A stretch of DNA of 64,000 bases, taken from positions 1,390-65,389 of the forward strand of contig DJCV01000012.1 in assembly GCA_002430735.1 (NCBI GenBank). The letters are read 5' to 3'. This document shows positions 8,218 to 64,000 of the stretch, piece after piece. Within the stretch, counting starts at the first letter, position 1. Every line of letters begins with the position of its first letter. The translations under genes and the position numbers were made by a program. Under the pieces are notes generated by a model that saw nothing but the letters and a program-made list of their open reading frames with translations, was not told the origin of the DNA and searched no databases. The stretch comes from Candidatus Woesebacteria bacterium UBA5941. GTDB lineage: Bacteria; Patescibacteriota; Microgenomatia; UBA8517.

Positions 8218-10358
8218 AAACAATTATTCTCTCTTTTGTCTGCCTGGCTTTAATTGTCATTCCGGTCGTAAAAAACCAAAGTGGATATCTTGTAGGTGGT
8301 GATGACACAAAGCTCTATTATGTTTTTCCAGATAAGTTTTTATCAAATTACGCATTCAATCTTATCTCAGACAATACTTTAGCAGGAGCAAATTCTGGCT
8401 ACTATCCGGTGTCATATTTCGCGCCACTATTTATTGTCTTTTGGCTGCTCAAAGTAATCCCTTTAAACACGCAGTTTTTAAGCTTTGGAATAAACCTCGC
8501 TGTTGGGTTTCTCTTCACATACAAACTGCTCATCCTTCTCCGCCCTCAGAAAAGTGTAGCTTCATTTACAGGTTACGTTTTAAGTGCGCTCCTGTTTGTT
8601 TTCTCACCTTTTCTTACTGAGACGCTTTATAACCATCAGCTACTGTCAATGTATTTAGTCGCGACTTTTCCCCTGACGACATTTCTGTTTTTGAAAGGGG
8701 TTAAGGAACATAGATTCTCGTATACCCTGTTTGCAAGCATCGTATTCTCACTGTTTAGTACCACACTAAACGCACTTCCTTGGATCGCTGGTTTTTTACT
8801 CGCTTCGTTACCTGCAATATTGTTTCTCCTTATTGAAAAGAAACATGCAATAAAACACTTCATCGTTTTTACGACCAGCTCTGTATTGTTAAACTTTTAC
8901 TGGATCTTCTTTTTTATACACTCGCAGATTTACGGTTCTGGATTATCAACTACTACGGAAACATATTCTTCAAACAGCTTCGTTTTTGATAACTTACGCA
9001 TAATAGAAACAGTATCTCGAATGTTTAGCCCGCTCAGTCAAATTTTTCATAATGTCTTACCAAACGGATATGCCACATTTCAAACGATCGACGTATTGTC
9101 ATGCACAATTCTTGTGATGGTCATGTTGGCACTTGCAACAGCGCACAAAGAACATCGAAAAGCACTTCTTATATCAGGCCTGTGTTTACTGTTCAGTTGG
9201 TTTTTATTTTCTCCAAATATGGGCTCATGGGGTCCGAAGACATTTGTGTTTTTGAGCAGAAACATACCATTTTTTACCATGTTCAGAAATATGTTTGATA
9301 AGTTCTCACTTCCTTTAGCCTTTTATTATGCGCTTTGTTTTGGCTTTTCTATTCATGCCCTGCAAGGTGTTTTGAAAAAGCATGGTAGTGTCATTGTCCT
9401 GGGGATTTCCTTTACAGTAGTCATGTTTTTTGGCAAATCATTATTCGAATTAAAAGATACACAAGAGAATCGGTTCAGCGGTCGATTTAACTCTGATTAC
9501 ATGAATTTAGTGACTTATTTCGAAGGACAAACAGATCAATCGCGTATTCTATGGCTGCCTTTAAACGGACCCACATATGCAAACATTGAAGACGACACGA
9601 ATACCGGTTCATATTATTCAGGTTTGTCGCCACTGCATATTTTGTCAGGGAAACCTGATTACACTGGTCGCTTCAGTTTTATTATTCCAGAAGACATATT
9701 TTATGGAGACAAAATATTTAATTCGTTAAGGGCAGGAAACTATCAGGAGGTAGGGGAAGCGCTACAAAAGTTAAACGCAAGATATATTGTAATTGATAAG
9801 CAGAGGCTACCCGCTAATATCGCAGATTTTATGTATGGTGGGGAAGGCTATCCGCTGCTAACGGCTCAAAGCGAAGAATTTTATGAACATATCCTAGGGG
9901 AGAAACTAACAGACTTCGGTCAACGGTATTCCGTCTATAAAATAGCCGAGAAATATGACAGCGATAGAGTGTACGTAGCCAGCGACACCGCACGTTCGCT
10001 TGATAGTAATGCGAAGAGTTTAGTCCGGTATGAAAAGCTTTCCAGTGATCGGTATTCAATTACTTTTTCTCGGAGTGACATCTATAACAATCTTGTTTTT
10101 CTAGATCCCTATTACCGTGATTGGGAAGTAATTCATAATGATAATGAAGTATTCCTTGATCAATCTGTCGCATTTGGGTATGCAAACGCTTGGAATACCC
10201 TTCCACTCATTGAAAATAGCAATACGGAAGACGTTACGGTGCAACTCGTGTTCAGACCTCAGCAATATAGTCTTTTTGCGTATTCAGTGAGTATAATAAC
10301 CGTGCTACTGCTACTATCATACATTGCATATGACTACTCAAAACACAGAATTTTATAA
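8187..10358 (+). CDS. Large polytopic membrane protein, putative GT-C-fold glycosyltransferase (paralog 2 of 4)
   Basis: 723 aa; GGDDTKLYYVFPDKF loop motif shared with paralog 3 (GGDDTRVYFEYPFEYF); SPNMGSWGPKTF...IPFFTMFRNMFDKFSLP motif; C-terminal FGYANAW. Confidence 0.6.
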   Translation: MYNYHMSEKVKTIILSFVCLALIVIPVVKNQSGYLVGGDDTKLYYVFPDKFLSNYAFNLISDNTLAGANSGYYPVSYFAPLFIVFWLLKVIPLNTQFLSFGINLAVGFLFTYKLLILLRPQKSVASFTGYVLSALLFVFSPFLTETLYNHQLLSMYLVATFPLTTFLFLKGVKEHRFSYTLFASIVFSLFSTTLNALPWIAGFLLASLPAILFLLIEKKHAIKHFIVFTTSSVLLNFYWIFFFIHSQIYGSGLSTTTETYSSNSFVFDNLRIIETVSRMFSPLSQIFHNVLPNGYATFQTIDVLSCTILVMVMLALATAHKEHRKALLISGLCLLFSWFLFSPNMGSWGPKTFVFLSRNIPFFTMFRNMFDKFSLPLAFYYALCFGFSIHALQGVLKKHGSVIVLGISFTVVMFFGKSLFELKDTQENRFSGRFNSDYMNLVTYFEGQTDQSRILWLPLNGPTYANIEDDTNTGSYYSGLSPLHILSGKPDYTGRFSFIIPEDIFYGDKIFNSLRAGNYQEVGEALQKLNARYIVIDKQRLPANIADFMYGGEGYPLLTAQSEEFYEHILGEKLTDFGQRYSVYKIAEKYDSDRVYVASDTARSLDSNAKSLVRYEKLSSDRYSITFSRSDIYNNLVFLDPYYRDWEVIHNDNEVFLDQSVAFGYANAWNTLPLIENSNTEDVTVQLVFRPQQYSLFAYSVSIITVLLLLSYIAYDYSKHRIL

Positions 10359-13444: not shown

Positions 13445-13601
13445 ATACTTATTTGTTAGCATTCTCTTGATTACGCCTCTTTTAGCATTTACCACAGTAA
13501 TCGGAAGGTACGGGTTATTAAATAGGTTACCTTTATTTGTTGGAGTGGTTATCGCATTTGGCGTAGTAGTCTACTTGGCTGAGTTACTGCATAAAAAATG
13601 A
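13437..13601 (+). CDS. Small 54-aa two-helix membrane protein (unlisted small ORF)
   Basis: ATG 13437 overlapping stop of upstream gene; hand translation MSKYLFVSILLITPLLAFTTVIGRYGLLNRLPLFVGVVIAFGVVVYLAELLHKK; TGA 13599-13601 overlaps ATG 13598 of next gene (ATGA coupling). Confidence 0.35.
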   Translation: MSKYLFVSILLITPLLAFTTVIGRYGLLNRLPLFVGVVIAFGVVVYLAELLHKK

Positions 13602-16291
13602 TGAAACTAACGAAGTACTCCATTTTTATAATTCCAATCCTAATTGGAGTCTCGTTGTATTTTCGCACGGCAGTATCACCTCAAATTGGAGCACACGATC
13701 TACCGTTTATTTATTCCGCCCAATTACAAGAAGCCTTTGCGACACCACAGGCCTGGATCACCAGATATGGAAACAGCTTTGGAAGTGACAACGTTTCGAC
13801 GCTTTGGTTGTGGCCATACGATTTTCTCGGCGGAGCGTTATCTAAAATTGGATTCTCTTATAGCAGTTTTATAAAGGTATTTGGAATTCTGCCGTCAGTA
13901 CTTCTGGGATACTTCGGCATTTACACGATTCTTAAAAAAGCGAATTTGCACAAAAATGCTCGTGTGTTGGGAGGACTTTTGTATGTGACAAGCACGTACT
14001 TTTTACTACTTATCGATGGGGGACAAGTGCAGGTCGCTCTGGCATATGGCATGTTACCAATCGTCTTACAAGCATTCCTTGTAAGCCTTGAAAAGAAGAC
14101 TTTGATACCAAAAATGTATTTCGGAATAACACTCACCCTTTTGGGTTTTTGCGATTTCCGATTTGTGTACGTCGCGTTAATTGTACTTGCGCTATGGACA
14201 CTCGTGCATGTAAAGCAATTAAAATCTGCAGCAACAACAACGATTGTAGGATCTCTTGTTTTATTAATTGCGAATATCTACTGGATGTATCCAGTGCTCG
14301 TGTATCGATCAGTGTCACTTCCTTATAGCTATTCACAACCGGCAGAATTAGGTTTTTTAAGTTTTGCTACATTCTGGCATGGGTTTCAGTTTTTAGCACC
14401 GCATTGGTATGAAAATATATTCGGTACCATTGCTTTGATAAATCCACTCTTTTTCGTTGTTCCATTTATCTCATTTGCTGCGCCAGTCTTTGTGCGTCGA
14501 AACAAATCTGTCGCATTTTATTTACTTGTTTTGGCAGTTGGATTGCTACTGAGCAAAGGGTTAAATCCACCGCTTGAGTCAGTGAATTTATTTATATTTC
14601 AGAACATTCCAGGAATGTCGTTATTTAGAGACCCAACGAAATTTTACTTTCTCCTTGGGTTAGGATTTGCAGGACTCTCTGCATATACTCTCAACTATTT
14701 AATTGAGCAAAAACGCGTCTACTTAACCCGCGGAGTCTACACGCTTTTTTCTTTGTATCTAATCGGTGTGGTATCTCCAATTATTAGTGGGAAGATGACC
14801 GGAATTCTCAACTATCCTGATCAGGTTTCTGAATACAACACGTTTAAAGAAGTTATTACGAAGAAAGGACCTGGACGTACCCTCTGGATTCCTGATCGCG
14901 GTCAACTTGGGTTTTCTTCACCGCTTAATCCATCACTTGATATGACAATACTCAATCAAATTCGACCATTTGTAAGTCAATCTGTGGGGTCGTATGAAAT
15001 TAATAATTTCTTAAGGGAGGGATCTTTTGTCGGTGAGTTACTTTCTATGAGTGGCATTTCTCGAATTGTTTATCCTGGAGTTGATAAACGCAGAGTGAAG
15101 CTTTCAGACGAAGATCTGCCATATCATGATATATTCTTTGATCAAATTGCAAGGCGCCCGTGGGCAGAGCAAGGGGAAGTCGAGAATACCCTCTTAGTTG
15201 AAAATGCACAGGCAGAGATATATCCGTTATCAAGTATGAACTTTGTTCTCGGTCCTGATTCTTTCTATGATGAAATGGCTTCAAGTAGTGCCCGATTAGC
15301 AGGAACAGTATTGATAGAGCAGTTCCCTGGTCTAATGGAAGAAGTGTGGTCACAGAATTTTCCAGTACTCGCATTCCGAAAGACTGAAACTGATATTGTG
15401 GCCTCCCTCATACCATCACATTTCATGCATAGCATTGCGGATAGTCTGAAAAATGACCCTGATCAGTCTGGTTGGTGGAAAAGGGGAACAAACCAATTCA
15501 GGGAGGCGCGAGTATTCCTGCAAGAAAAATACGCGATTGATATGAGAGATTTTGATTATGGTCATGGATGGGCATTCTCTGAGGGAAATCTTACCCATGA
15601 AGTAAAAGAGCCGACAATTGATGGTCATCTCTACATTAGAGTGCTTACAACAACGTTAGGAGGCATGGTCAGTGCCGTAAATAACGGAAACGCTATCGGA
15701 ACAGTCTCAACTATTCCCGAAAACAAATCAGTACGTACAGTTTCGTTTAGTGGCGGCGGCGCTCCAAGTGTTACTGAATATGAAGAAGGTGTTTTCCACT
15801 GGTATTATCTTGGAAAAACAACAAAAGGAACCCTCTCACTCCAAACAAAGGGAGAATTAAATGCGGTTACTTCAATTGCAGTTATTCCTGATACTGTTCA
15901 AAACGAAATAACTCAAAAAAGGTCTCATTTGTCCGTGCGTTTTTGGGATGAGATGTCTGATGTCGATAAGCGCGCGCTGTTTCAAACTGGAACACCGACT
16001 ACGTTGTCCATCCTTGCCTCTACGCCAACAAGTAAAGAAATAGAGGTGAGTGGTACATCTGGTGGTGCTTTTATCGGTTTTTCTAATACATATAGTCCCC
16101 ACTGGAAAATTCAAAACGACGAAAATTCGCAAAGCTATCCCCTTTTCACATTTCTAAATGCATTTTATATACCTGCTGATGGGAGGTATACTCTACAATA
16201 TGAGCCACAGACCTCAGTTGCTATTGGGTCGATCGCTAGCGGTATTGGTATCATACTTATCACATTAGTTGTTTTATGCAAAAGAAAGTAA
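13598..16291 (+). CDS. Large polytopic membrane protein, putative GT-C-fold glycosyltransferase (paralog 4 of 4, largest)
   Basis: 897 aa; KGLNPPLESVNLFIFQNIPGMSLFRDPTKFYF motif aligned with other paralogs; C-terminal NTYSPHW; C-terminal TM. Confidence 0.6.
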   Translation: MMKLTKYSIFIIPILIGVSLYFRTAVSPQIGAHDLPFIYSAQLQEAFATPQAWITRYGNSFGSDNVSTLWLWPYDFLGGALSKIGFSYSSFIKVFGILPSVLLGYFGIYTILKKANLHKNARVLGGLLYVTSTYFLLLIDGGQVQVALAYGMLPIVLQAFLVSLEKKTLIPKMYFGITLTLLGFCDFRFVYVALIVLALWTLVHVKQLKSAATTTIVGSLVLLIANIYWMYPVLVYRSVSLPYSYSQPAELGFLSFATFWHGFQFLAPHWYENIFGTIALINPLFFVVPFISFAAPVFVRRNKSVAFYLLVLAVGLLLSKGLNPPLESVNLFIFQNIPGMSLFRDPTKFYFLLGLGFAGLSAYTLNYLIEQKRVYLTRGVYTLFSLYLIGVVSPIISGKMTGILNYPDQVSEYNTFKEVITKKGPGRTLWIPDRGQLGFSSPLNPSLDMTILNQIRPFVSQSVGSYEINNFLREGSFVGELLSMSGISRIVYPGVDKRRVKLSDEDLPYHDIFFDQIARRPWAEQGEVENTLLVENAQAEIYPLSSMNFVLGPDSFYDEMASSSARLAGTVLIEQFPGLMEEVWSQNFPVLAFRKTETDIVASLIPSHFMHSIADSLKNDPDQSGWWKRGTNQFREARVFLQEKYAIDMRDFDYGHGWAFSEGNLTHEVKEPTIDGHLYIRVLTTTLGGMVSAVNNGNAIGTVSTIPENKSVRTVSFSGGGAPSVTEYEEGVFHWYYLGKTTKGTLSLQTKGELNAVTSIAVIPDTVQNEITQKRSHLSVRFWDEMSDVDKRALFQTGTPTTLSILASTPTSKEIEVSGTSGGAFIGFSNTYSPHWKIQNDENSQSYPLFTFLNAFYIPADGRYTLQYEPQTSVAIGSIASGIGIILITLVVLCKRK

Positions 16292-46266: not shown

Positions 46267-47400
46267 ATGAAACACGTCGCAATTTGCTTTGGAGGAATTT
46301 CACCTGAACATGAAGTATCAGTCATTACTGGACTGCAAGTGATCGAGAATATTGAGACAAGTGAATTTATCCCCTACGCCCTTTATGTTGCCCCATCGGG
46401 TGAATTTTCCTTGTTAAGGAATCTTACTGACCGTTCTGATTTCTTAAAAACCGCACGAACCCAGATTCGATTCGGACGAGATGACAAAGGTGGATATTTT
46501 GAAACGGTGGGGCTCTTCGGAAAGAAAACGTATCTTGATTGTGCGTATTTTGCATTCCACGGAGGCACTGGTGAATCTGGCCAACTGCAAGGTATGTTTG
46601 AGTCGCTTGGGATCCCACACACAGGAGCAACGGTACTCGGGGCGGCACTAAGTATGAACAAAGCAGCGACAAAGGAAATGCTCACCGCATATGAAATCCC
46701 TTCAATTCCTGGAGTATCTGTTGATAGCGATGCTGCGCGATTACAAACGAAAGATGTCGTTTCACATGTACTGGAGGAATTAAAGTTGCCCGTAATTGTG
46801 AAGCCATCACATCTTGGTTCAAGTATTGGAGTCACCATTGCGAAGACCTCAGGAGCGTTAACAAAAGCACTTCTTGCTGCGTCTCAGATCGACTCTGAGA
46901 TCGTTATCGAAAAGCTCATGGAAGATTTTATTGAATACAATTGTGCAGTAAAACGCGTCAACGGGGAGCTCCTTGTAAGTGAAGTAGAGCGACCTATTAA
47001 AAAGGATCTGATTTTATCGTTTGCTGATAAGTATGAGCGTGGTGGTGGTAAGAAAACCGGAGGTATGGCTTCTCTCTCACGAGAGTTACCAGCAAAAATC
47101 TCTCCACGCTTGAAAGATGAAATCCAAGAGCTCGCAAAAACGATGTATGAAGCTGTGAGGGCAGAGGGAATGTTACGATGCGACTTTATGCTTGTTGGAA
47201 AACGACTCTATCCAATCGAAATAAATCCGATCCCGGGTTCAATGGCCTTTTATTTGTGGGAAGCAAGTGGAATGAGTTTTACAGACCAAATAACCGAAGC
47301 GATTACTGAAGCTATTCGAACATTTGAAAATGCCAAGGAGAAAAATTTAAAATACGACTCCGATATTATTAAAAACTTCGTTAATAGTACAGATCATTAA
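46267..47400 (+). CDS. ddl: D-alanine--D-alanine ligase
   Basis: VAICFGGISPEHEVSVITGLQV N-terminus and ATP-grasp C-terminal region. Confidence 0.8.
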   Translation: MKHVAICFGGISPEHEVSVITGLQVIENIETSEFIPYALYVAPSGEFSLLRNLTDRSDFLKTARTQIRFGRDDKGGYFETVGLFGKKTYLDCAYFAFHGGTGESGQLQGMFESLGIPHTGATVLGAALSMNKAATKEMLTAYEIPSIPGVSVDSDAARLQTKDVVSHVLEELKLPVIVKPSHLGSSIGVTIAKTSGALTKALLAASQIDSEIVIEKLMEDFIEYNCAVKRVNGELLVSEVERPIKKDLILSFADKYERGGGKKTGGMASLSRELPAKISPRLKDEIQELAKTMYEAVRAEGMLRCDFMLVGKRLYPIEINPIPGSMAFYLWEASGMSFTDQITEAITEAIRTFENAKEKNLKYDSDIIKNFVNSTDH

Positions 47401-48727
47401 GTTCTGGCTGTATAAGAAGGATATATTTTTTAGGACTGTATTTGTCAGAAATAATGTTCCACGCTTCACTCAATGTCTGTGCTCTATGAAACCGGCTCCG
47501 AATCATGTCTTTAGAGAGTATTGTGTTTAAAAGGACAACTTCATCAACATGCTTCTCCAAGTAATCTGCGTATTTTTTGTTGGCATCTAGATTGTCTGGA
47601 CCGAGTTCGGGTATTCCACCTGTCACAACAATTGTCTTCTTTTTCTCTTTGTCTCCGAGCTTTTTTAGTTCAGAAACCGCTGCTAAGGCTGTAGTAAAAC
47701 TTATGTTGTATGAATCATCAATTACACGATATCCATTCATATAAGAAAGTTTCTGTCGTCTGTCAGGCAGTGTTAGATTTTGCAATGTGTCTTTAATAAT
47801 TTCTTTGGGAATATCAAACTCTTCTGAAATCTTTTTTGCCATGAGTAAATCCTTTTGGGCGCTCTCGCTTCTGATGTTTGATTTTATGTAAATACTACTA
47901 TCAATTTTTGTTACTGCTTTTGTAAAAGCGATACCAAGCTGTTTTAATTTTTTATATTCCTCGTTGAACATGAATAATTTGGCATGAGGTTTAGCATACT
48001 CAAATATCTCAAGTATTGCCTGCGCCATCTTTTTGCGATTGCCAAATCGTTCAACGTGTTGATCTCCAATTGATGTAATTACAGCCATGTCAGGTGGCGT
48101 TATCATACAACTGCGTCTAATTTCTCCCTGAAAATAAGTATCCATCTCCACGATAAGGAGTTCTGTATTGTCTTTCAATTCTTTTATAACCCATGCTGCA
48201 ATGCCTGTTGGAGTATTTATATTTCCAGGCACCATCTGAGTGCGTTTCGTAAAACGAATCAACTCGTAGAAGAAATTTTTTGTTGTCGTTTTTCCATATG
48301 AGCCCGCAACACCAACTATTAATAAGTCAGAACGCATTGCAACAATTCCAGCAGCTTTTCGTTGTAAACGATATTTCATGAACGAATAAAACGGAGTTAG
48401 TAAGACGTTTGATAACAACACAAAAAAAGGTATAAGGAGCACAGTCCCTAATATGCTTACTGGTGATATAACCATAAAAACGAGAGAAAGAACTGTGATT
48501 GATACGGATAAGAGACATGTTGTTTGTATTCGAGAAGTGAATTTTAAAGTATCGCGCTTTTGCAGTTTGCGCTTGAAATAAAACTGAGGCAATCGATTCA
48601 GATATCGTTGTGAATCGTATTCTTCTAATTGCAAGATATACAAAAAGTCCTCAAAAGGAAAAATGTATTTATAACTGTTCAATAAATTCTTTAACATATC
48701 CGAAAAATAAATATGGATGTGAGACAA
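47381..48727 (-). CDS. MurF-like Mur ligase with N-terminal transmembrane hairpin replacing the usual N-terminal domain
   Basis: P-loop LLIVGVAGSYGKTTTKNF; IDDSYNISF (MurF DDSYNANP-like); VVTGGIPELG (MurF GDMLELG-like); N-terminal 130 aa contain two long hydrophobic segments (TTCLLSVSITVLSLVFMVI..., VLLIPFFVLLSNVLLTPFYSF). Confidence 0.6.
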   Translation of the reverse strand: MSHIHIYFSDMLKNLLNSYKYIFPFEDFLYILQLEEYDSQRYLNRLPQFYFKRKLQKRDTLKFTSRIQTTCLLSVSITVLSLVFMVISPVSILGTVLLIPFFVLLSNVLLTPFYSFMKYRLQRKAAGIVAMRSDLLIVGVAGSYGKTTTKNFFYELIRFTKRTQMVPGNINTPTGIAAWVIKELKDNTELLIVEMDTYFQGEIRRSCMITPPDMAVITSIGDQHVERFGNRKKMAQAILEIFEYAKPHAKLFMFNEEYKKLKQLGIAFTKAVTKIDSSIYIKSNIRSESAQKDLLMAKKISEEFDIPKEIIKDTLQNLTLPDRRQKLSYMNGYRVIDDSYNISFTTALAAVSELKKLGDKEKKKTIVVTGGIPELGPDNLDANKKYADYLEKHVDEVVLLNTILSKDMIRSRFHRAQTLSEAWNIISDKYSPKKYILLIQPELNDLYY

Positions 48728-49352
48728 ACGTATTATGTTTTGCCTTTTTTATTACTTTCAACTGAGACTTGGGAATGAGTGTATTGGTTTTATGTGCAAT
48801 TTGCAAAGGTGCGCTGTCATCATTTTCTCCCCAAATAAGAAGCGTTGGAACTTTGATTCGTGGCAGAAACGAGGTTTGGTCAAATGGAACAACATTTCGT
48901 AAAATACCGCCAAGGCCTTTAGTAGACGCTACCTTTAAATCATCTGAGTAAAACTGAGATTTCACTATGTCAGGTGTTACCGACTTAAACGTTTTAGAGA
49001 AGAGTTTTTTTATTTTCACTGAGGTAGATGGGCTATAGATCGTTGGGGTACCGGACAATATAAGTGCCTTTACATATGCTGGATCCTGTGATGCAAGGTA
49101 TGCCGCGATTCTTCCGCCGAAGGAATGGCCTAATAGTATGACATCTGAAAGCTTCTGTCGTTTTATATAGAGAGACACCCATTCTGCATATTCAGGTATC
49201 CCCCAATTAGTCGGAGGTAATGGCTCCTCACCAAAACCCGGCAAATCAATGATGTGGACAGAACGAATTGCTTGTATTCCTCTTAATTGCGATTCAAGAT
49301 TCATCCATTCTTTTTTGGTATGCCCCCACCCATGAAGAACAAGTAAATCCAT
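48669..49352 (-). CDS. Alpha/beta hydrolase-fold protein
   Basis: LVLHGWGHTKKEW and nucleophile elbow ILLGHSFGGRIAAYL (GxSxG); 59-nt out-of-frame overlap with murF-like gene start. Confidence 0.7.
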   Translation of the reverse strand: MDLLVLHGWGHTKKEWMNLESQLRGIQAIRSVHIIDLPGFGEEPLPPTNWGIPEYAEWVSLYIKRQKLSDVILLGHSFGGRIAAYLASQDPAYVKALILSGTPTIYSPSTSVKIKKLFSKTFKSVTPDIVKSQFYSDDLKVASTKGLGGILRNVVPFDQTSFLPRIKVPTLLIWGENDDSAPLQIAHKTNTLIPKSQLKVIKKAKHNTFVSHPYLFFGYVKEFIEQL

Positions 49353-49398: not shown

Positions 49399-50907
49399 TT
49401 GGGAACAATGAATAAAACCCTCGATGAGCTTCTCGAAAACGTTCTCGTAACAAATTCCATACATTATAAGAATCACACAATTACTGGTGTGACTGCGAAT
49501 TCTAAACATGCAAAACCAGGAGATCTATTTGTCGCAGTAGTTGGCTTAACAAATGATGCTCATCAATATATTCCACAGGTCATTAATCAAGGCGTTACCG
49601 TGGTCGTTGGACAGCACGAACTATCAAATCTCCCATTTTCTATCCCAGAAAGTGTTACCTACATTACAGTCCCTGATTCCCGTAAAGCACTCGGACTTAT
49701 TGTTGCAAATTATTATGACAATCCCTCCGATTCACTCACTGTTATAGGCGTAACGGGAACTGATGGAAAGACCACAACATGTCACATGATTTATGCAGTA
49801 TTAAGAAAGACATATTCAGTGGGAATGATCACAACATTGGGTGCGTATATTAATGGCGTCTTAATCGATACTGGTCTCCATGTAACAAGTCCAGACGCAC
49901 CTGTTGTACAAGCCCTTCTTCATAAAATGAAAGAGGGTGGAGTTACTCACGTCGTTCTTGAAGTTACATCACACGGGTTACACCAAGATCGTTTTAGCGG
50001 CGTGAAGTTTGATGTGGGAGTGCTGACGAATATTACGCATGAACACCTCGACTACCATAAGACATTCGACAATTATTTACAGGCTAAGATGATTCTTCTT
50101 AGAAATGCCAAGCATGTGGTATTAAATGCAGATGATCCTTCATTTAAGAACGTTCGATCCGAGATAAAAAACAAATCGATGACTACTTATGCAATAAAAG
50201 CGCAGGCAGATTTTGTGGCATTTAACATTTCATTTGATACTGGAATTTCATTTTCAGTTAAGAACAACGCAGTGACGTATACCGTTTCTTCCAAAGCTGT
50301 GGGCCAATTTAATGTCTTTAATGCACTTGCCGCAATTGCAGTTGCGCGAACCTTTTCGGTTCCGTGGAAGAATATCGTGTCTTCTCTAAAGTCATTTAAA
50401 TCTCCAAAAGGACGCGTGGAAGAAATAAAAAATGAGAAAGGGCTACGGATCTTTGTGGACTTCGCACACACCCCAAATGGATTGCAACATATTTTGCAAG
50501 CACTCCGAGTTAAAACTCCCAAGGAACATAAGTTGATCGTTGTGTTTGGTTCAGCAGGAGAGCGGGATCGTGAAAAACGACTGCTCATGGGAGAAGTCGC
50601 AGGAACGTATGCTGATTTGTCTGTGATTACCACTGAAGATCCCCGAAGCGAGAGTATTCATGAAATCGCACAATCAATTCAAAAAGGTATTGAAAAAGTA
50701 AACGGGAAATATGTTGTTCAATTAGATCGCGGTCAAGCGATTTATGATTCGATACATAAACATGCAGATCGTGGAGATACCATCGTTATCTGTGGAAAAG
50801 GACATGAAAAATCGATGGCATTTGGTAAAACGGAAATCCCATGGTCCGACCAGAGAGCTATTAAGTCAGCACTCAAGATGAAGGCGTTGCATACCCCAGT
50901 TAACTAA
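49399..50907 (+). CDS. murE: UDP-N-acetylmuramoyl-L-alanyl-D-glutamate--2,6-diaminopimelate ligase MurE
   Basis: ITGVTANSKHAKPGDLFVAVVGLTNDAH, VIGVTGTDGKTTT, VDFAHTPNGL (MurE DYAHTPDAL-like); C-terminal EDPR at the DNPR specificity position. Confidence 0.85.
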   Translation: MGTMNKTLDELLENVLVTNSIHYKNHTITGVTANSKHAKPGDLFVAVVGLTNDAHQYIPQVINQGVTVVVGQHELSNLPFSIPESVTYITVPDSRKALGLIVANYYDNPSDSLTVIGVTGTDGKTTTCHMIYAVLRKTYSVGMITTLGAYINGVLIDTGLHVTSPDAPVVQALLHKMKEGGVTHVVLEVTSHGLHQDRFSGVKFDVGVLTNITHEHLDYHKTFDNYLQAKMILLRNAKHVVLNADDPSFKNVRSEIKNKSMTTYAIKAQADFVAFNISFDTGISFSVKNNAVTYTVSSKAVGQFNVFNALAAIAVARTFSVPWKNIVSSLKSFKSPKGRVEEIKNEKGLRIFVDFAHTPNGLQHILQALRVKTPKEHKLIVVFGSAGERDREKRLLMGEVAGTYADLSVITTEDPRSESIHEIAQSIQKGIEKVNGKYVVQLDRGQAIYDSIHKHADRGDTIVICGKGHEKSMAFGKTEIPWSDQRAIKSALKMKALHTPVN

Positions 50908-50908
50908 T

Positions 50909-52252
50909 TTATTTCTTTTTCGGTGAAACCGATTTTAAATACTCTTTCTGATGTTTCTCCATCTCAGTCTTTTTCATTTGGAGTAACAATTGTTCATTTC
51001 GCATTGATGATTCTTGAAACTCAATATCTTTTTGTAATACATCTTCGTTTACTTTGAGTGCCATTTCATTAAAGCCGGTAAGCTTCATACCAGATAATGA
51101 TCGCACTCGTGAAAGGGCAACATATCCCATGCCTGGAACGAATGAACGGGAAAGGTCAATCTCAGCGGCATCTAGACTCATCCCTTGGCTTTTGTGAATA
51201 GTGATTGCCCATGCCAAGCGAAGGGGAACTTGAGTGATCTGCGCCTTCGTCATGTTATCATCTTGGATCATCCAGACTTCAGGTGTTGCAACTATTTGCT
51301 CTCCGCTTTTTGTCGTAACAATTGGATAATTTGTTTTCGGTTCAAAACCAGTAACGATTCCCACCGTGCCGTTAACATATCCTTTGTCATAATTGTTTTT
51401 TACAAACATAACAATGGCACCTTTTTTTATGATGAGTTCACTCGGAGCGAGACAGCTTTTTTTCAATAGTTCACAGAGTTCTGGGATACCCTTACTCTCG
51501 GTTTTATAGATATGTGCTTTCTCATCCATTGTTTCAAGCGCCTTTAAATTAATCGAATCAACATCGATGTTATGTGTATACAACCGAGTTGGTTCACTAA
51601 ACCCGTCTATCTCTTGCCGATATCTACTTTGGAGTGCCTCTAATGTATCTTCACTGGTTGATCCACTGCGGATATCATTTAGTACTTTTAGAATCCCATC
51701 ATCCTCTTGCCGATGTTGTTCTGATAGATAACAGATCTTTAGATCCATCTCATTCCAAACATTGGATTCGTATGCAAACCGTCCATCTTCTGAAGAACTT
51801 CTGGTAACCGGTGGGAGTTGAAAAAAGTCGCCACACATAACAAGCTGAAGCCCGCCAAACGGCACATCTTTATACATAAACGCCCGACAGACCTGATCAA
51901 CCATGTCTAGACGGTATGCATGAAGCATTGAAATTTCGTCGATAATTAACACCTTTGTTCCTTGGAATTTTGTTTGCAGATGATGTTTGTCTAACATGTT
52001 GTCGATATCTCGATCTGTTAACGCATCTTTAATTCCCAGGCCACTCCAGCTATGAATAGTCATCCCGTTTAAATGTGTCGCAGCGATTCCTGTTGAAGCG
52101 GTAACCCCAACATGGACGTTACTCCATTTCAGGTAACTAATGTATTGGTTCAATACATATGTTTTTCCAGCACCAGCTGCACCAGTGAGATACACGTTAT
52201 GACCCAATTTCAAAATATCGAGAGCGTCGGATTGAGTCATGAGGAGTTTCAT
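50909..52252 (-). CDS. PIF1/RecD-like SF1 DNA helicase (standalone, about 445 aa)
   Basis: Walker A VYLTGAAGAGKTYVL; ILIIDEISML (Walker B); GGLQLVMCGDFFQLPPV; C-terminal ITIHKSQGMSLD; all typical of AAA_30/UvrD_C_2 Pif1-family helicases. Confidence 0.75.
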   Translation of the reverse strand: MKLLMTQSDALDILKLGHNVYLTGAAGAGKTYVLNQYISYLKWSNVHVGVTASTGIAATHLNGMTIHSWSGLGIKDALTDRDIDNMLDKHHLQTKFQGTKVLIIDEISMLHAYRLDMVDQVCRAFMYKDVPFGGLQLVMCGDFFQLPPVTRSSSEDGRFAYESNVWNEMDLKICYLSEQHRQEDDGILKVLNDIRSGSTSEDTLEALQSRYRQEIDGFSEPTRLYTHNIDVDSINLKALETMDEKAHIYKTESKGIPELCELLKKSCLAPSELIIKKGAIVMFVKNNYDKGYVNGTVGIVTGFEPKTNYPIVTTKSGEQIVATPEVWMIQDDNMTKAQITQVPLRLAWAITIHKSQGMSLDAAEIDLSRSFVPGMGYVALSRVRSLSGMKLTGFNEMALKVNEDVLQKDIEFQESSMRNEQLLLQMKKTEMEKHQKEYLKSVSPKKK

Positions 52253-52323
52253 TCTAACAGGTAATCGGAATTTCTGGACAGAGAAAACCCCCGCAGTTGT
52301 TACCGCAGGGGTTTAGTGACTAT

Positions 52324-52998
52324 TTAGAGAGAAAGCTCCATATTAGTCATTGAAAGTTCGTGAACCTCGTACTCTTCAAAGTTCACTTCATCAAATGCTT
52401 TTTTGACCTCCGCACGTGGGTCAAAGTAGAAATATTGATGGCTTATACGCCAACCGTAAAAGTAATACCCATGTTCAATATGTATTACGATCCGGTTTCC
52501 ATCATCAAATTCTACATTTAAACTTATAAGCGGGTCTTTCTGATCCACGCTTTCGTTCATTGCATGTTCGATTGCTACCTGCCGGGATTCAAATTGTTTC
52601 ACATCGTTTGAGTTAAAACCGTTCCAGTTCCAGGGTGACAGCATGACGTTCATTGTTGCATTCGGATCAGACATGATTTTTCTCACTTTTTTGTCTATGG
52701 CTCGATCCTTTAATATTTGGATTCGAACCGTTAAATGAATATTGCCGTACGCCATAACGAGCTTTGAATGGTCGTTGCCCCAATCCTGTTTCTCAGGGTC
52801 GGAACTTTGCCATGAAACCTGAACTTCATTCAGGTGATTCAAGACAACTAGCTCTACAGCGTCTGCAAATGGTTTTAATGCAAGGGTTGTATCGATCTCT
52901 TGACCGTAACCCGAGCTTGCAACCAGCTTCGCAGCTTGTTGATAATTCCATGCTATTTGCATGAGGGTACCAACACCCTGTTTTGCTTTGTTAGCCAT
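52324..52998 (-). CDS. Hypothetical protein (224 aa), operon partner of PIF1-like helicase
   Basis: ORF track; strong SD AAGGAG 8 nt upstream of ATG on minus strand; no recognisable motif. Confidence 0.6.
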   Translation of the reverse strand: MANKAKQGVGTLMQIAWNYQQAAKLVASSGYGQEIDTTLALKPFADAVELVVLNHLNEVQVSWQSSDPEKQDWGNDHSKLVMAYGNIHLTVRIQILKDRAIDKKVRKIMSDPNATMNVMLSPWNWNGFNSNDVKQFESRQVAIEHAMNESVDQKDPLISLNVEFDDGNRIVIHIEHGYYFYGWRISHQYFYFDPRAEVKKAFDEVNFEEYEVHELSMTNMELSL

Positions 52999-53066
52999 TA
53001 TTAGCTCCTTTGGATACTATTGGCGTAACATAAACGAATCGTGCAAGCTGAGCTCAACACGAGTCA

Positions 53067-53121
53067 CTTAATAGCGACAGTCTAGCTATTTTAAGTAAAC
53101 AACCAGAAGGTCGCTATTAAG
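53067..53121. repeat. 12-bp perfect inverted repeat CTTAATAGCGAC-N31-GTCGCTATTAAG in leader of hypothetical/helicase operon
   Basis: Read directly: 53067-53078 and 53110-53121 are exact reverse complements. Confidence 0.8.
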
Positions 53122-53267
53122 ATTAAGTGAGAATGTGCTGTCTGTGTAAACGTGCGAATCTTTCTAAGCGTAGGTACGAGAGCATTGTTTGTGCGCTTGT
53201 ATCTAGGCTCAAAATTCACTTAATTACGGGAGATTTTCCGAGGTATTAGTTCTTTACTAATATGAAT

Positions 53268-53296
53268 ACTATAGCATTAAAAAGACACTTTGTCAA
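53268..53296 (-). promoter_or_regulatory. Near-consensus sigma70-type promoter on minus strand (TTGACA-17-TATAGT)
   Basis: Plus TGTCAA 53291-53296 is minus-strand TTGACA; plus ACTATA 53268-53273 is minus-strand TATAGT; 17-nt spacer; drives hypothetical+helicase genes with about 260-nt leader. Confidence 0.5.
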
Positions 53297-53319
53297 TACT
53301 ATAAGACTATCAATTGGAG

Positions 53320-54675
53320 CTAAAACGAGGCTACAATTTGATTAAATTGCTCGCCACGGTCGTACTCGTTTTTAAATAGTCCGAATGAGGCAAATGCTGG
53401 ACTGAGTAAAATGACATCGCCGGACTGAGTGTTTTTAAATGCAGTTTGAACAGCATTTTTGAGTGACTCTTCAAAAAAAACAGGGAGCGTGAGAGTCAGT
53501 ATCTGTTCCCGAATTTTGTCGGTACCAGACCCGGGGAGCATGACGACTGCTTTGCAGTAAGATGGAATTGCTTGGATGAGCGCTCCCATTTCTATCTCCT
53601 TATCGGCCCCTCCCATGATTAATACGACGTTATTGTTTCTAGAGACTGCTTTTAATCCTACGATTGTCGCGTCAGGCATTGTTGCAGTTGTGTCGTTATA
53701 AATCTTCACACCATTGACCTGTTTAATTAATTGAAGTCTTCCTTCAACGCCGGTAAAGGATTGCAGTACTTCTCGTATCGTTATGTCTGATATTTTCATT
53801 GCGCGACATGCTGCAATTGCGAGTGCTGCGTTATATTTATTATGTTCCCCGGGAATTGACAGTGACCATCCACTTGGAAAATCTGAGACATCACGGATTT
53901 CATGAGGCGCATTAAACGAATATTTTTTCGTGATGAATGGCGCAGCTTGAGCACCCATGATGACAAAATCATTTCTCGTTTGGTATTTAAAAATGTTTGC
54001 CTTGTCGTCTAAGTACTTAGCCATATCACCTTTGTAATAATTCATATGATCCGCGAGGAATGTAGTGAAAACGGCAATATGTGGTGATATTTGATCGGCA
54101 CCAAACCCTTGCAATTGCCACGAGTCCAGTTCTAAAACAGCAATGTCTTCACCTTCAACTTCATCAAGGAAGGGAAGAGTTGCTACACCCTTTACATTTC
54201 CCCCCAAAAAAACATGCCGTGCTTCGATCTCTTTCTTTTTCTGCGCTGCTTTAAGGATTTGATAGATCATGTGGGTAACAGTGGACTTCCCACGGGTTCC
54301 GGTTACGCCGATAATTCGCACGTCTCTTTTTTGGCTTAGTCGAGCAAAAAGAGCAGAACTCATTTCAACAGGAATGCCATTCTTTTTTGCTTCAGCAATA
54401 TAAATGTTATCGAGTGGGACTCCCGCTGCCTTGAGAACGAGATCTCGATCCTTGAAGTCTTCAAGTCTATGTTCACCTAGTACATAGGTTATATTTGTAA
54501 ATCCTTTTAATTGATCCAAGCTTGTTTGCAAGTCTTCAGCCTTTTTTAAATCAGTGACAATAATCTCTGCTCCGGACTCAGCTAAGTATTTAACATCGCC
54601 CACACCACGTCCTAAAACCCCGAGACCCATTACAGTAATTTTCATTTCACTGAAGTACTTGGAAAAACTTTTCAC
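53320..54675 (-). CDS. murD: UDP-N-acetylmuramoylalanine--D-glutamate ligase MurD
   Basis: KITVMGLGVLGRGVGDVKYLAESGAEIIVTD N-terminus, IIGVTGTRGKSTVT P-loop, NDTTATM (NDSKATN-like), LLSPAFASFGLFKNEYDRGEQF C-terminus; probable true start MKITV (54645). Confidence 0.8.
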   Translation of the reverse strand: MKSFSKYFSEMKITVMGLGVLGRGVGDVKYLAESGAEIIVTDLKKAEDLQTSLDQLKGFTNITYVLGEHRLEDFKDRDLVLKAAGVPLDNIYIAEAKKNGIPVEMSSALFARLSQKRDVRIIGVTGTRGKSTVTHMIYQILKAAQKKKEIEARHVFLGGNVKGVATLPFLDEVEGEDIAVLELDSWQLQGFGADQISPHIAVFTTFLADHMNYYKGDMAKYLDDKANIFKYQTRNDFVIMGAQAAPFITKKYSFNAPHEIRDVSDFPSGWSLSIPGEHNKYNAALAIAACRAMKISDITIREVLQSFTGVEGRLQLIKQVNGVKIYNDTTATMPDATIVGLKAVSRNNNVVLIMGGADKEIEMGALIQAIPSYCKAVVMLPGSGTDKIREQILTLTLPVFFEESLKNAVQTAFKNTQSGDVILLSPAFASFGLFKNEYDRGEQFNQIVASF

Positions 54676-61284: not shown

Positions 61285-61851
61285 ACTCGTTACACATTAA
61301 CGAGCTTGATGCGTCCCGCTCTGTGGGATGCCTGCTTGAAAGACAATTTGCGTTTTTACCTAGCGAGCACTGTGTTTAAGTACACACCACTTGCGGGACG
61401 CTATCATTTTGCTCATTACACAATCATTCGTTGTGGCAACCTAAAAGGATATACCTTTTTGTATCTTTCTAGTTTGCCATTCAACACGGTCATCCGTTAA
61501 TCTGGTCCCCCTCAGGGACCCCCACCAGATTATCCGGAACCCTGAAAACTCATCCTTTAGCGCTGAGGTGTAGGCTACCATGGATGGATGAGTGAGACTT
61601 GATACCGCGGCGATGGATCATACCAGTGCACAATGTGTACGTATGGGGTCCGTCTAGGTGCGGGCGGTATTCCCAGAGCACTGGTACTAGTCTCATGTTG
61701 ATGGCGGGCCCACGTTGGATGGGAGTAGCGTAAGCGACCCTGCTCCCAAACACGGGGTGTTCTTTTAAATAGGTCCAAGGAGGTGACTCATTGGACAATG
61801 AATATTAAAAGGGGTGAAGCGTTAAAAACTTCACCCCTTATTTACCCTTTT
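61285..61851 (+). ncRNA. Candidate structured non-coding RNA of about 560 nt with GC-rich 3' half, ending at intrinsic terminator
   Basis: Follows promoter; 5' hairpin CTCGTTA-cacat-TAACGAG; long-range perfect 9-bp pairing GCGTCCCGC (61311) with GCGGGACGC (61394); 61501-61680 is 55-57% GC by hand count against a visibly AT-rich background; ends at hairpin GGGGTGAAG-N9-CTTCACCCC plus TTATTT; no convincing ORF. Confidence 0.4.
61811..61851 (+). terminator. Intrinsic terminator (9-bp GC-rich stem plus interrupted T-tract)
   Basis: GGGGTGAAG 61811-61819, loop cgttaaaaa, CTTCACCCC 61829-61837, then TTATTTACCCTTTT. Confidence 0.55.
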
Positions 61852-62182
61852 GACCTTCGTAAACAGGGCACCTATCTGGTGCCCTCTTTAAGGAGGCCAA
61901 TCCGTTCAAAAGCACATCTAAATTGTTAGAAAAGAACTTTTGAAAGAGACAGGCATTGTGCCAACAGATTGTTGCCTCCTTTCCTTAAATAATTACTCGC
62001 ACATAGTTGCGAATAAAAGAGACAGTAAGACATTTGGGATGTCAGAGCGGTACCAATACCGCGCGCGCGTGTCTTACCGGTCGGTATGTGAATGGGAGAA
62101 ATCCCCCCTTTACGAGGCGACAGACCCAGTCGCCTCTTTTTTATGGCCAAAAAATAAGAAACAGTGTAAAATACGCTCACAG
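61852..62182 (+). promoter_or_regulatory. ileS 5' leader of about 330 nt, riboswitch/attenuator-like (possibly a divergent T-box)
   Basis: Second hairpin GGGCACC-tatct-GGTGCCC; AGAGA-containing helix GAAAGAGACAGGCA...TGCCTCCTTTCC; CGGTACC...TACCGCGCG resembling T-box core GGGUGGUACCGCG; alternative pairings CGGTACC/TACCGGTCGGTA; terminator immediately before ileS. Confidence 0.35.
62115..62142 (+). terminator. Strong intrinsic terminator/attenuator 41 nt upstream of ileS start
   Basis: GAGGCGAC 62115-62122, loop agaccca, GTCGCCTC 62129-62136, then TTTTTT 62137-62142. Confidence 0.7.
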
Positions 62183-64000
62183 ATGTCTACTAAATCTTCA
62201 TTTAAGCCTGTTGACCTGCAAGTGAATTTTCCTGAAATGGAAAAAACGCTCTTGTCCCATTGGTATGACTCAGGAATTGTGAATAAATATCTTCATAAAA
62301 ACGACGAATCAGAGAAGTATTTCTCATTTCTCGATGGACCGATCACTGCAAATAACCCAATGGGTGTACACCATGCGTGGGGGAGGACGTATAAGGACTT
62401 ATGGCAAAAGTACCACAACATGAAAGGATACAAACAGAGATTTCAAAATGGATTCGACTGCCAAGGTCTCTGGGTTGAAGTAGAAGTTGAGAAAGAATTG
62501 GGTCTTCATAACAAAAAAGATATTGAAAACTTGGTTCCAAATGACAAAAAGGAAAGTATCGCTAAATTTATTACTCTCTGCAAAGAGCGAGTCTTAAAGT
62601 TTTCTGGTATTCAAACTGAACAAACGAAACGTCTTGGTAACTTCATGGATTGGGAAAATTCATACTTCACGATGTCCGCTGAAAACAATTACATGATTTG
62701 GCATTTCTTGAAAAAATGTCATGAACGTGGGCTTATTTACAAAGGCCATGACTCAGTTCCGTGGTGCCCACGCTGTGGTACTGCAATTTCTCAACATGAA
62801 ATGCTCACTGAAGATTACAAAGAGGCGGTTCACGAATCAGCATTCTTGGCGCTTCCTGTAACGAATGAAAACTATTCATTACTTGTGTGGACCACAACTC
62901 CATGGACAATTCCTGCAAACGTCGCTGTCGCGGTGCACCCTAATTGGACATATCAGGTGTGGGAAAACACAGAAACGAAAGCAAGAATTGTTTTACTCGA
63001 TAGTGGTGATTGGGAAGGGTCAGTGGATATTGCAAAACGTGTGTTTGGCTTCGTAAAAGGGGACTGGACCAAAGGAGAGACGATAAAAGGTTCAGAGTTA
63101 CTCGGAAAGAAGTACCGAGGTCCGTATGACCATGTAGACGCTGTAGCGAAAGCACAAAAGGAACATCCAGAGACATTTCATACTGTTATTGCGGCCAAAG
63201 ATTTAGTGACTCCTCATGAAGGAACAGGCTTAGTTCATATAGCTCCTGGTGCAGGAACAGAAGATTTTGCGTTAGGAAAAGAATTTAATCTGCCAGTTGT
63301 TGCACCAATTGATGAAGAAGCGAGCTATGTGGATGGATTTGGAGAGCTTTCAGGACAAAATGCAAAAAAACATCCTGAAATTATCCTCGATTACTTGAAA
63401 ACGACTGAATTTTTCGTTGCATCTCACCAATACAAACACCGCTATCCAGCATGTTGGCGATGTAAGACTGAGCTTGTGTGGCGCGTTGTTGACGAATGGT
63501 ACATCGGAATGGACATCGGAACCCCGTCGCTTCGAGAAGACATGATTGAGGTTGCAAAGAAAATCACTTGGATGCCAGAATTTGGACTGAAACGAGAGCT
63601 TGATTGGCTTGCAAATATGCACGATTGGCTCATTTCGAAAAAACGGTATTGGGGACTTGCCCTTCCAATTTGGGTATGTGGATCCTGCGATCACTTCGAA
63701 GTTATAAGCGGCAAAGAAGAGTTAAAAGAAAAAGCGATGAGTGGATGGGAAGAATTCGAAGGGAATACGCCTCATAGGCCATGGATCGATCAGGTAACTA
63801 TCAAATGTAGCAAGTGTGGAGGGGAAGCGCACCGTATTCCTGACGTTGGAAATCCGTGGCTTGATGCAGGGATTGTTCCCTACTCAACTATTATGAAAGA
63901 AAACACGGGAGATCCGTTATATCTCACTAATAGAGCAGAATGGGAAAAGTGGTTCCCGATTGATTTCATCACAGAAAGTTTCCCTGGACAGTTTAAAAAC
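62183..64000 (+). CDS. ileS: Isoleucine--tRNA ligase (N-terminal about 600 aa; runs off window end)
   Basis: Hand translation from ATG 62183: MSTKSSFKPVDLQVNFPEMEKTLLSHWYDSG...FLDGPITANNPMGVHHAWGRTYKD...WTTTPWTIPANVAVAVHP...PIDFITES; open to window end; not in ORF track because it has no stop in window. Confidence 0.75.
   Translation, partial: MSTKSSFKPVDLQVNFPEMEKTLLSHWYDSGIVNKYLHKNDESEKYFSFLDGPITANNPMGVHHAWGRTYKDLWQKYHNMKGYKQRFQNGFDCQGLWVEVEVEKELGLHNKKDIENLVPNDKKESIAKFITLCKERVLKFSGIQTEQTKRLGNFMDWENSYFTMSAENNYMIWHFLKKCHERGLIYKGHDSVPWCPRCGTAISQHEMLTEDYKEAVHESAFLALPVTNENYSLLVWTTTPWTIPANVAVAVHPNWTYQVWENTETKARIVLLDSGDWEGSVDIAKRVFGFVKGDWTKGETIKGSELLGKKYRGPYDHVDAVAKAQKEHPETFHTVIAAKDLVTPHEGTGLVHIAPGAGTEDFALGKEFNLPVVAPIDEEASYVDGFGELSGQNAKKHPEIILDYLKTTEFFVASHQYKHRYPACWRCKTELVWRVVDEWYIGMDIGTPSLREDMIEVAKKITWMPEFGLKRELDWLANMHDWLISKKRYWGLALPIWVCGSCDHFEVISGKEELKEKAMSGWEEFEGNTPHRPWIDQVTIKCSKCGGEAHRIPDVGNPWLDAGIVPYSTIMKENTGDPLYLTNRAEWEKWFPIDFITESFPGQFKN

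Follow-up and report, generated by a model that had tools for sequence, protein, structure and literature searches.

A membrane-anchored ligase of the MurF clade forms a conserved module with an alpha/beta hydrolase and a long D-Ala-D-Ala ligase in Candidatus Woesebacteria and other bacteria

MurF is described in textbooks as a soluble enzyme of three domains and is an antibiotic target. Relatives of the Mur ligases that are devoid of the N-terminal domain 1 have been characterised, namely MurT, FolC, PgsB and CphA, and their acceptors are not linked to uridine diphosphate (UDP). One of them, PgsB/CapB, is associated with the membrane and has PgsC and PgsA as partners. In the ddl-murF operons of Firmicutes and in the Ddl/MurF paralogue pairs of van clusters, a D-Ala-D-X ligase is encoded beside the enzyme that adds its product, and the van clusters include a hydrolase, VanX or VanY, within the unit. 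The present analysis concerns a ligase of the MurF clade from Candidatus Woesebacteria bacterium UBA5941, in which domain 1 is replaced by a conserved cytosolic segment and a transmembrane (TM) hairpin. Its gene lies with those of an alpha/beta hydrolase and a long D-Ala-D-Ala ligase (Ddl) in a stretch of 64,000 nt (contig DJCV01000012.1, positions 1,390-65,389), which is referred to below as the window. Full-text literature searches returned no description of a transmembrane MurF or of a hydrolase-ligase-Ddl module.

The ligase is encoded by a minus-strand open reading frame (ORF) at 47381..48727, which yields 448 residues when read from the TTG at 48727. This start was rejected in favour of the ATG at 48697, on which public gene calls and the N-termini of the homologues agree, and the gene was placed at 47381..48697, encoding 438 residues. 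The protein (P0001) is called from this ATG, with 100% identity, on eight contigs read, one of which is a Joint Genome Institute (JGI) contig of 941,966 bp (Ga0119928_1000002). A protein search retrieved more than 1330 homologues at E ≤ 1e-5, so that the ORF is not a chance occurrence. The beginning of the gene overlaps the hydrolase gene by 29 nt (48669-48697), on the same strand and in another frame, and its 3′ end overlaps the convergent ddl by 20 nt. An earlier reading made from the letters of the DNA (the sequence-only reading) had recognised this ORF, the orientation of the two genes antisense to cell-wall genes, which are the flanking ddl and murE, and the alpha/beta hydrolase with its GHSFGG motif; all of this holds. 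The out-of-frame overlap that it had reported also exists, and the two genes are translationally coupled, but its length is 29 nt when counted from the ATG and not 59. The features of the locus are the following, with coordinates in the window.

47381..48697, minus strand: membrane-anchored MurF-clade ligase ("TM ligase"), from Pfam Mur_ligase_M and Mur_ligase_C, AlphaFold and PDB folds
48536..48697, minus strand: conserved cytosolic N-terminal segment of the ligase, residues 1-54, from conservation, AlphaFold helices and the N-terminal profile
48389..48535, minus strand: transmembrane hairpin of the ligase, residues 55-74 and 79 to about 103, from hydropathy, AlphaFold and the distribution of charges
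47849..48310, minus strand: central ATP-binding domain, from Pfam PF08245 and alignment with E. coli MurF
48278-48304, minus strand: P-loop, G132-K140, from alignment with E. coli MurF
47456..47755, minus strand: C-terminal Mur ligase domain with R314, DDSYN and GGIPELG, from Pfam PF02875 and alignments
47384..47410, minus strand: C-terminal tail motif QPELNDLYY, from conservation in 120 sequences
48669..49352, minus strand: serine hydrolase of alpha/beta fold, 227 residues, from Pfam Abhydrolase_1/6
46267..47400, plus strand: long D-Ala-D-Ala ligase (ddl), 377 residues, from Pfam Dala_Dala_lig_N/C
49399..50907, plus strand: murE, divergent from the hydrolase-ligase pair over a spacer of 46 nt, from NF001126 (462.6 bits, cut-off 373)

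The ligase contains the Pfam domains Mur_ligase_M and Mur_ligase_C, and the N-terminal Mur domain is absent. It scores 139.1 bits with the murF model TIGR01143, the cut-off of which is 288.6, and the match starts at profile position 63; the competing murD and murC models give 58 and 35 bits, respectively. Five canonical MurF queries align with the ligase only from their own residues 87-119 onward. The closest PDB entry by sequence is Thermotoga MurF (E 1e-22), and the ten best Foldseek matches are all MurF, the first being 3zl8 (E 8e-19); the E-values of the MurF matches range from 1e-13 to 1e-19 over about 360 aligned columns. In a neighbour-joining tree of the catalytic domains (337 columns, 200 bootstraps), the membrane-type ligases and canonical MurF are united against MurC, MurD and MurE with 96% bootstrap support. 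Canonical MurF alone is supported at 86% and all membrane-type ligases together at only 54%, while the subfamily to which the window belongs, from bacteria of the Candidate Phyla Radiation (CPR), forms a long branch with 100% support.

The P-loop (G132-S-Y-G-K-T-T-T-K140) aligns with G107-K115 of E. coli MurF, and E184, H214 and R314 correspond to E158, H188 and R316 of that enzyme. The C-terminal domain bears D327-D-S-Y-N331 and G360-G-I-P-E-L-G366. No variation occurs over 120 sequences at G132, K136, T137, E184, R314, D327 and N331, and H214 and Y330 are nearly invariant. Where canonical MurF ends in KGSR..ME, the ligase has the tail QPELNDLYY, with D435 and Y438 invariant in the same sequences and P431, E432, L433 and Y437 nearly so; outside this CPR subfamily, the tail reads ENDLPDxY. 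For the catalytic core, membership of the MurF family is supported. Several defining features are missing, as there is no domain 1 and no carbamyl-lysine and the score is below the curated cut-off, and the protein is therefore called a variant of the MurF clade rather than MurF. The sequence-only reading had pointed to MurF-type motifs in the central and C-terminal domains (P-loop, DDSYN, GGIPELG) and to the loss of the canonical N-terminal domain. Both are confirmed, the former at residues 132-140, 327-331 and 360-366, and the latter by Pfam, the start of the TIGR01143 match, the alignments with MurF and AlphaFold.

In place of domain 1, the ligase has the TM hairpin preceded by a 54-residue segment. 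The latter carries the motif FPFxDFLYILQLEEYxSxRY...RRNxQKRDxLxYTxR, in which Q23, Y27 and T54 are invariant and D17, Y20, R43, R48 and R56 nearly invariant over the same 120 sequences. In the AlphaFold model, which was built on 120 homologues (predicted local distance difference test, pLDDT, 96.3; predicted template modelling score, pTM, 0.92), it forms short helices at residues 2-12, 15-24 and 29-39, followed by a basic loop. The hydrophobic hairpin consists of a helix (55-74), a four-residue turn and a second helix running from 79 to about 103. It is modelled as helices with pLDDT above 88, and its Kyte-Doolittle means over 19 residues reach 2.3-3.1 across the family. The second membrane helix contains the motif LIPxFVLxxN, with P90 invariant and N97 nearly so. 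A long helix (79-120) exits the membrane and leads directly into the strand that precedes the P-loop. There are six Lys and Arg residues before the hairpin (residues 40-54), none in the outer loop and five after it, which according to the positive-inside rule places both the N-terminus and the ligase body in the cytoplasm (N-in/C-in topology). This predicted arrangement fits a location of the ATP-dependent domains on the cytoplasmic face. When a profile built from the first 125 or so residues was searched against 1.84 billion proteins, 370 cluster representatives (50% identity) were found, and in almost all full-length matches the N-terminal segment heads a Mur ligase of 430-490 residues. Of the earlier description of the first 130 residues as two long hydrophobic helices, the hairpin is retained; ahead of it lies the conserved, helical and cytosolic segment of residues 1-54.

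With MurF (TIGR01143, EC 6.3.2.10; E. coli 1GG4, T. maritima 3ZL8), which is the closest clade in the tree, the ligase shares the central ATPase and C-terminal folds, the P-loop, the Mg-binding Glu, the His, the equivalent of Arg316 and DDxYN, as well as the linkage to ddl and to the division and cell wall (dcw) cluster. It differs from MurF in lacking domain 1, which binds UDP-N-acetylmuramic acid (MurNAc) and contains the D-S/T-R motif, in having (T/G)(P/G)GxxELG where MurF has GDMxELG, and in ending with (E/Q)(N/P)(D/E)LxDxY instead of KGSR..ME. The carbamyl-lysine common to MurD, MurE and MurF is missing in the subfamily of the window. The membrane ligase furthermore has a hydrolase partner that looks obligate, and it scores below the curated MurF cut-off.

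The lipid II isoglutaminyl synthase of Gram-positive bacteria, MurT-GatD, is comparable in that a Mur homologue without domain 1 is encoded and works together with a partner enzyme bearing a nucleophile triad, and acts on a membrane-stage precursor. MurT is among the fold matches of the ligase (E about 1e-11), with a PDB sequence match at only E 4.6e-4, and the MurT models do not match the window ligase. MurT, unlike the latter, is a soluble protein with a C-terminal domain of DUF1727 type; it amidates D-Glu and is partnered by a glutaminase instead of an alpha/beta hydrolase. The resemblance to MurT-GatD is best regarded as one of logic, not of family membership.

A comparison with CapB/PgsB had been suggested in the sequence-only reading, and an N-terminal membrane anchor followed by Mur_ligase_M is the layout of PgsB too. 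In that case, the protein would be an amide ligase unrelated to peptidoglycan, of poly-gamma-glutamate, folate or cyanophycin type, which merely resembles MurF. This was rejected. The PgsB (TIGR04012), FolC and cyanophycin models give no match at E ≤ 0.01, as compared with 139 bits for murF, and the ligase falls within the MurF clade of the tree, PgsB belonging to a different clade. Its neighbours are ddl and dcw genes, with no pgsC/pgsA-like partners and no conserved extra gene, whereas PgsB/CapB has other partners and no linkage to Ddl. An enzyme of this kind is highly improbable here.

The hydrolase, the membrane ligase and the long Ddl constitute a conserved module, the members of which are nearly always found together. 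In the subfamily of the window, the hydrolase gene is directly upstream of the ligase gene at 15 of 16 loci, with an overlap of 29-35 nt in those that have public gene calls, and ddl is convergent at all 16, mostly overlapping or within 42 nt. At the loci outside the CPR, the genes follow one another on one strand in the order hydrolase, ligase, ddl; the hydrolase is present at 50 of 57 and ddl lies directly downstream at 44 of 57. Distant relatives (25-30% identity) were found in other CPR groups, in Anaerolineae and other Chloroflexota, in Acidimicrobiia, Clostridia and Erysipelotrichaceae, in Hyphomonadaceae including the cultured Hyphomonas sp. Mor2, and in one gammaproteobacterial and one Porphyromonadaceae metagenome-assembled genome (MAG). 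The CPR carriers of the module include the complete chromosomes OY970175.1 and CP055307.1. The module is therefore spread over CPR groups and at least five other phyla, and the earlier wording that "this lineage" uses such an enzyme was too narrow. At the N-terminus of the distant ligases there are several hydrophobic helices, seen as three to five hydropathy peaks. These ligases have the same QxxxY and TxR motifs and contain the ENDLPDxY tail, the carbamyl-lysine and DDxYNSNP; relatives of the membrane type outside the CPR score 198-228 bits with TIGR01143. Among the matches listed, each of two collection scans gave over 500 stretches with the broader membrane-anchored type.

Clustering of all neighbours revealed no conserved fourth gene, only a lineage-specific synteny with housekeeping genes (radical S-adenosylmethionine (SAM), RecG, FabI, pseudouridine synthase). 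No membrane-type ligase was found in PLSDB, where the matches are canonical MurFs at 25-34% identity. Several "plasmid" records of PLSDB (NZ_CP154629.1, NZ_CP030101.1, NZ_LT559118.1 and others) are whole chromosomes of 2.6-11.9 Mb, and the murF matches in them are thus chromosomal. Two departures from the three-gene arrangement were observed. At locus L178 (JGI Ga0613812_000001, P0008), the ligase and the convergent ddl are preceded by the gene of a Zip-family transporter instead of the hydrolase. At L095:179-2395 and L096:83-2299, from two samples, there is no hydrolase gene, and a transglutaminase-like domain (Pfam Transglut_core, with Cys, His and Asp candidates identified by eye) precedes the ligase as an N-terminal fusion in a protein of 738 residues (P0396). 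The convergent ddl overlaps the fusion gene by 20 nt and is followed by murA. The substitution of the hydrolase by a fused transglutaminase-like domain suggests that hydrolase activity by way of an acyl-enzyme is an integral part of the system.

The hydrolase has the catalytic triad Ser77-Asp178-His206, with the Ser in GHSFGG, and the triad is invariant in 69 module partners and in 86 CPR homologues. The oxyanion-hole motif, HGWG, is 91-99% conserved. The sequence has no signal peptide or hydrophobic N-terminus. The alpha/beta fold was confirmed by AlphaFold (pLDDT 95.5), and the enzyme looks active. Its nearest folds are generic small-molecule esterases (aryl esterase, BioH, MenH), so that the fold search gives no clue to the substrate. 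No subfamily cut-off is reached, the best score being that of EstV (103 bits for a cut-off of 300).

The Ddl of the window, of the ATP-grasp fold, retains all the residues of E. coli DdlB (E15, S150, Y216, R255, D257, E270 and L282) in the alignment. As these catalytic residues, including Y216, are kept, it is of the D-Ala-D-Ala type. After Tyr216 of the omega-loop, there is a Gly/Lys-rich insertion of 10-20 residues (KYxxGG...GMxSLxRxxPA) that is lacking in DdlB and is carried by the Ddl of the window (46267-47400) and by those of L004, L086, L019, L079 and L056. The window Ddl scores 209 bits with TIGR01205, below the cut-off of 245.65, while the copy of the Eubacteriales module is above its cut-off (307 versus 262). 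In comparison with the module, the MurFs of the ddl-murF operons and van clusters are soluble three-domain proteins, and VanX and VanY belong to the zinc peptidases and not to the alpha/beta hydrolases. A short DdlB-like gene (318 residues) is located directly upstream of the hydrolase gene at L016:7575-8531 and L121:3727-4683, and L159:13497-15700 consists of two tandem ddl genes; some module-bearing genomes thus have two D-Ala-D-X ligases.

The most likely activity of the membrane ligase is the addition of D-Ala-D-Ala to a muramyl-tripeptide precursor at the membrane, and the chance that this is correct is put at about even. The two-helix hairpin would anchor the ligase in the cytoplasmic membrane, its N- and C-termini and the entire catalytic body being on the cytoplasmic side. 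D-Ala-D-Ala produced by the Ddl encoded tail-to-tail with the ligase would be joined by the latter, at the expense of ATP, to the MurNAc-tripeptide precursor at its free carboxylate. The reaction would take place at the membrane where MraY works and would be the "MurF step" of peptidoglycan precursor synthesis, so that the ligase would presumably be the enzyme of this step in the Woesebacteria genome. The cytosolic segment that borders the membrane (Q23, Y27, T54, R56), standing where domain 1 would be, may help to hold the carrier end of the acceptor, the carrier being either UDP or undecaprenyl-pyrophosphate. The hydrolase, made together with the ligase, probably acts on the same pool of substrates, for example in trimming or proofreading the stem peptide.

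The genomic context is that of an almost complete dcw cluster. The gene order in the window is mraZ-rsmH-ftsL-ftsI-ddl-(ligase-hydrolase)-murE-...-murD-mraY-ftsW-murG-ftsA-ftsZ, and since the genome has a penicillin-binding protein (PBP) transpeptidase, MraY, MurG and FtsW, a pentapeptide donor is needed. When all the ORFs of the window were compared with MurF, MurC and MurE queries, only murE, the ligase and murD were matched; there is no canonical murF or murC in these 64 kb, in agreement with the earlier remark that the cluster contains no canonical murF. The synteny of L177, a close relative, is that of the window. At L118, murE-murD-murC-ddl adjoins the module, and at L097 the order is murG-ftsW-mraY, the module, and ddl-murE-murC-ftsI-rsmH; no other MurF was found within 10 kb at either locus. 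In L060, from a Clostridia MAG, the order is murC-hydrolase-ligase-ddl...murE-mraY-murD, with murE overlapping mraY at the usual place of murF. At L095, murA adjoins ddl.

Several observations weigh against the assignment of the MurF step to this ligase. The E. coli MurF carbamyl-lysine K202 is replaced by Ile228, and by Leu or Ile elsewhere in the CPR subfamily. In the subfamily of the window, DDxYNxNP has become DDSYNISF, with ISF in place of ANP, and GDMxELG has become GGIPELG. The murF-model score is low (139 bits). The search for MurF in this genome covers the 64 kb of the window out of 942 kb. The conserved Pro and Asn of the second membrane helix, together with the conserved hydrolase partner, exceed what a mere tether would need.

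The first of these observations could mean that the ligase, without its carbamyl-lysine, no longer ligates and serves only to fix the hydrolase, or some other Mur enzyme, at the membrane. The altered motifs of the C-terminal domain and the co-occurrence of a soluble MurF in some relatives are consistent with this. The P-loop, E184, R314 and DDSYN are however invariant or nearly so in the 120 sequences, as is nearly H214, the distant membrane-type relatives keep the lysine, and MurC works without carbamyl-lysine. A dead scaffold is thus considered very unlikely.

The presence of a second MurF-type gene in some relatives is a further point. In five CPR contigs, a soluble protein of this type is encoded directly beside the same ddl, at the following positions.

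L103:6242-7561, minus strand: second soluble MurF-type gene, adjacent to ddl
L108:2726-4045, minus strand: the same
L130:4077-5363, plus strand: the same
L138:12559-13854, plus strand: the same
L176:4285-4720, plus strand: the same

These short soluble MurFs have 428-439 residues (the fifth copy is partial) and score 261-272 bits with TIGR01143, just under the cut-off. They keep the canonical MurF motifs and have no membrane helix. Domain 1 is wholly absent, the P-loop being at residues 25-35, and the central domain has an insertion of roughly 45 residues with an amphipathic hydrophobic stretch. A genome can thus contain the membrane ligase along with a second plausible MurF. The sequence-only reading had named a canonical murF elsewhere, together with a different phylogenetic placement of the gene, as evidence against its proposal, and a MurF elsewhere is present in this form in some relatives. 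The membrane ligase is not necessarily the sole MurF of the cell and, by orthology, may have a different job.

The module of Hyphomonas sp. Mor2 (L085, CP017718.1 2236099-2257688) is likewise a point against. It lies far from the dcw genes, whereas in Alphaproteobacteria murF is normally in the dcw cluster, and its neighbours are the genes of a class A beta-lactamase and of two sigma factors of the extracytoplasmic function (ECF)/PhyR type. The module is probably accessory in this organism, and its surroundings hint at a role related to stress or antibiotics.

These cases form the basis of an alternative that is less probable than the MurF step at the membrane but has to be taken seriously. 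The sequence-only reading had offered a tethered MurF or a ligase with a different, non-nucleotide substrate, and either may be correct. The system would be accessory, the MurF step being performed by another ligase encoded elsewhere, such as the short soluble MurF, while the hydrolase and the membrane ligase would use D-Ala-D-Ala on a membrane-bound, possibly lipid-linked acceptor. In one version, a damaged tetrapeptide stem would be trimmed by the hydrolase and D-Ala-D-Ala re-added on lipid-linked precursors; in another, the acceptor could be a different envelope polymer. The polar residues and the Pro conserved in the membrane helices, the invariant residues at the membrane interface, the invariant triad of the hydrolase and its replacement by the transglutaminase-like fusion in one lineage are all compatible with this, as is the use of acceptors other than UDP-linked ones by MurT, FolC, PgsB and CphA. 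The last argument, that the loss of domain 1 would prove a non-UDP acceptor, is weakened by the short soluble MurF. Both MurF-type enzymes of the CPR seem to be without the UDP-binding domain, and the loss of domain 1 alone therefore does not imply a non-UDP acceptor. An accessory role is also opposed by the dcw-type clusters in which the membrane ligase is accompanied by no further MurF within 10 kb, namely those of the window, L177, L097, L118 and L060, for which the full MurC/D/E set is counted. Genomes of about 1 Mb seldom keep redundant systems, and yet the family is spread over many CPR groups. Finally, there is no fourth conserved gene that would indicate another pathway.

A more specific proposal combines the MurF step with a lipid-linked acceptor. 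The hydrolase and the ligase would form a two-enzyme machine at the inner face of the membrane, working on undecaprenyl-pyrophosphate-MurNAc-peptides instead of nucleotide-linked precursors. The hydrolase would cut off a wrong or truncated C-terminal residue and the ligase would add D-Ala-D-Ala, so that stem peptides would be completed or repaired at the membrane stage, the MurF step having been taken over altogether in this manner in many CPR bacteria. In this complete form, the proposal is rather unlikely.

Whichever of these functions is correct, there is a large conserved family in which the catalytic core of MurF is kept and its nucleotide-binding domain is swapped for a membrane module. 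Since annotation pipelines name its members "MurF" or "Mur ligase family protein", ordinary MurF chemistry is tacitly taken for granted when the metabolism of CPR bacteria is reconstructed. With the ligase as a working MurF, precursor synthesis in these organisms would have its last cytoplasmic step bound physically to the membrane, possibly also to MraY; otherwise, the ligase would define an unrecognised envelope pathway that uses D-Ala-D-Ala. Should the proposal of the lipid-linked acceptor hold, the textbook rule by which every Mur ligase step is soluble and UDP-linked would fail for a large part of bacterial diversity. Either answer bears on the cell-wall biology of uncultivated bacteria and on the generality of MurF inhibitors.

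The GC content is uniform across the window, at about 40%. An Rfam scan of the window gave no family match, and promoter and terminator signals between 46.9 and 49.7 kb are no more numerous than in shuffled sequences. At 50909-54675, the dcw cluster of the window is broken between murE and mraY by three minus-strand genes.

50909-52252, minus strand: PIF1-type helicase, inserted in the dcw cluster
52324-52998, minus strand: ORF of 224 residues without Pfam match, inserted in the dcw cluster
53320-54675, minus strand: inverted murD, inserted in the dcw cluster

The inserts of L177 are different (Peptidase_C39_2, DUF5715) and are placed between the hydrolase gene and murE. Yet another arrangement is that of L173:2-12259, on a metagenome contig, where rsmH-ftsI-mraY-murD-ftsW-murG-hydrolase-ligase-ddl are on one strand; the module is at the usual place of murC-murB-ddl, and murE/murF are not between ftsI and mraY.

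The ORF of a class I aminoacyl-tRNA synthetase at 61400-64000, probably that of IleRS, is cut by the right end of the window, which is the reason why no long ORF is listed there. At the other end, positions 686-36286 are occupied by a cluster about 35 kb long, all on the same strand, with many glycosyltransferases of families GT2 and GT4, at least six SAM methyltransferases, three membrane glycosyltransferases of PMT_2 type, one Wzy_C protein and one nucleotidyl transferase. Four large ORFs of this cluster have no Pfam match (1432-3510, 8187-10358, 11033-13444 and 13598-16291).

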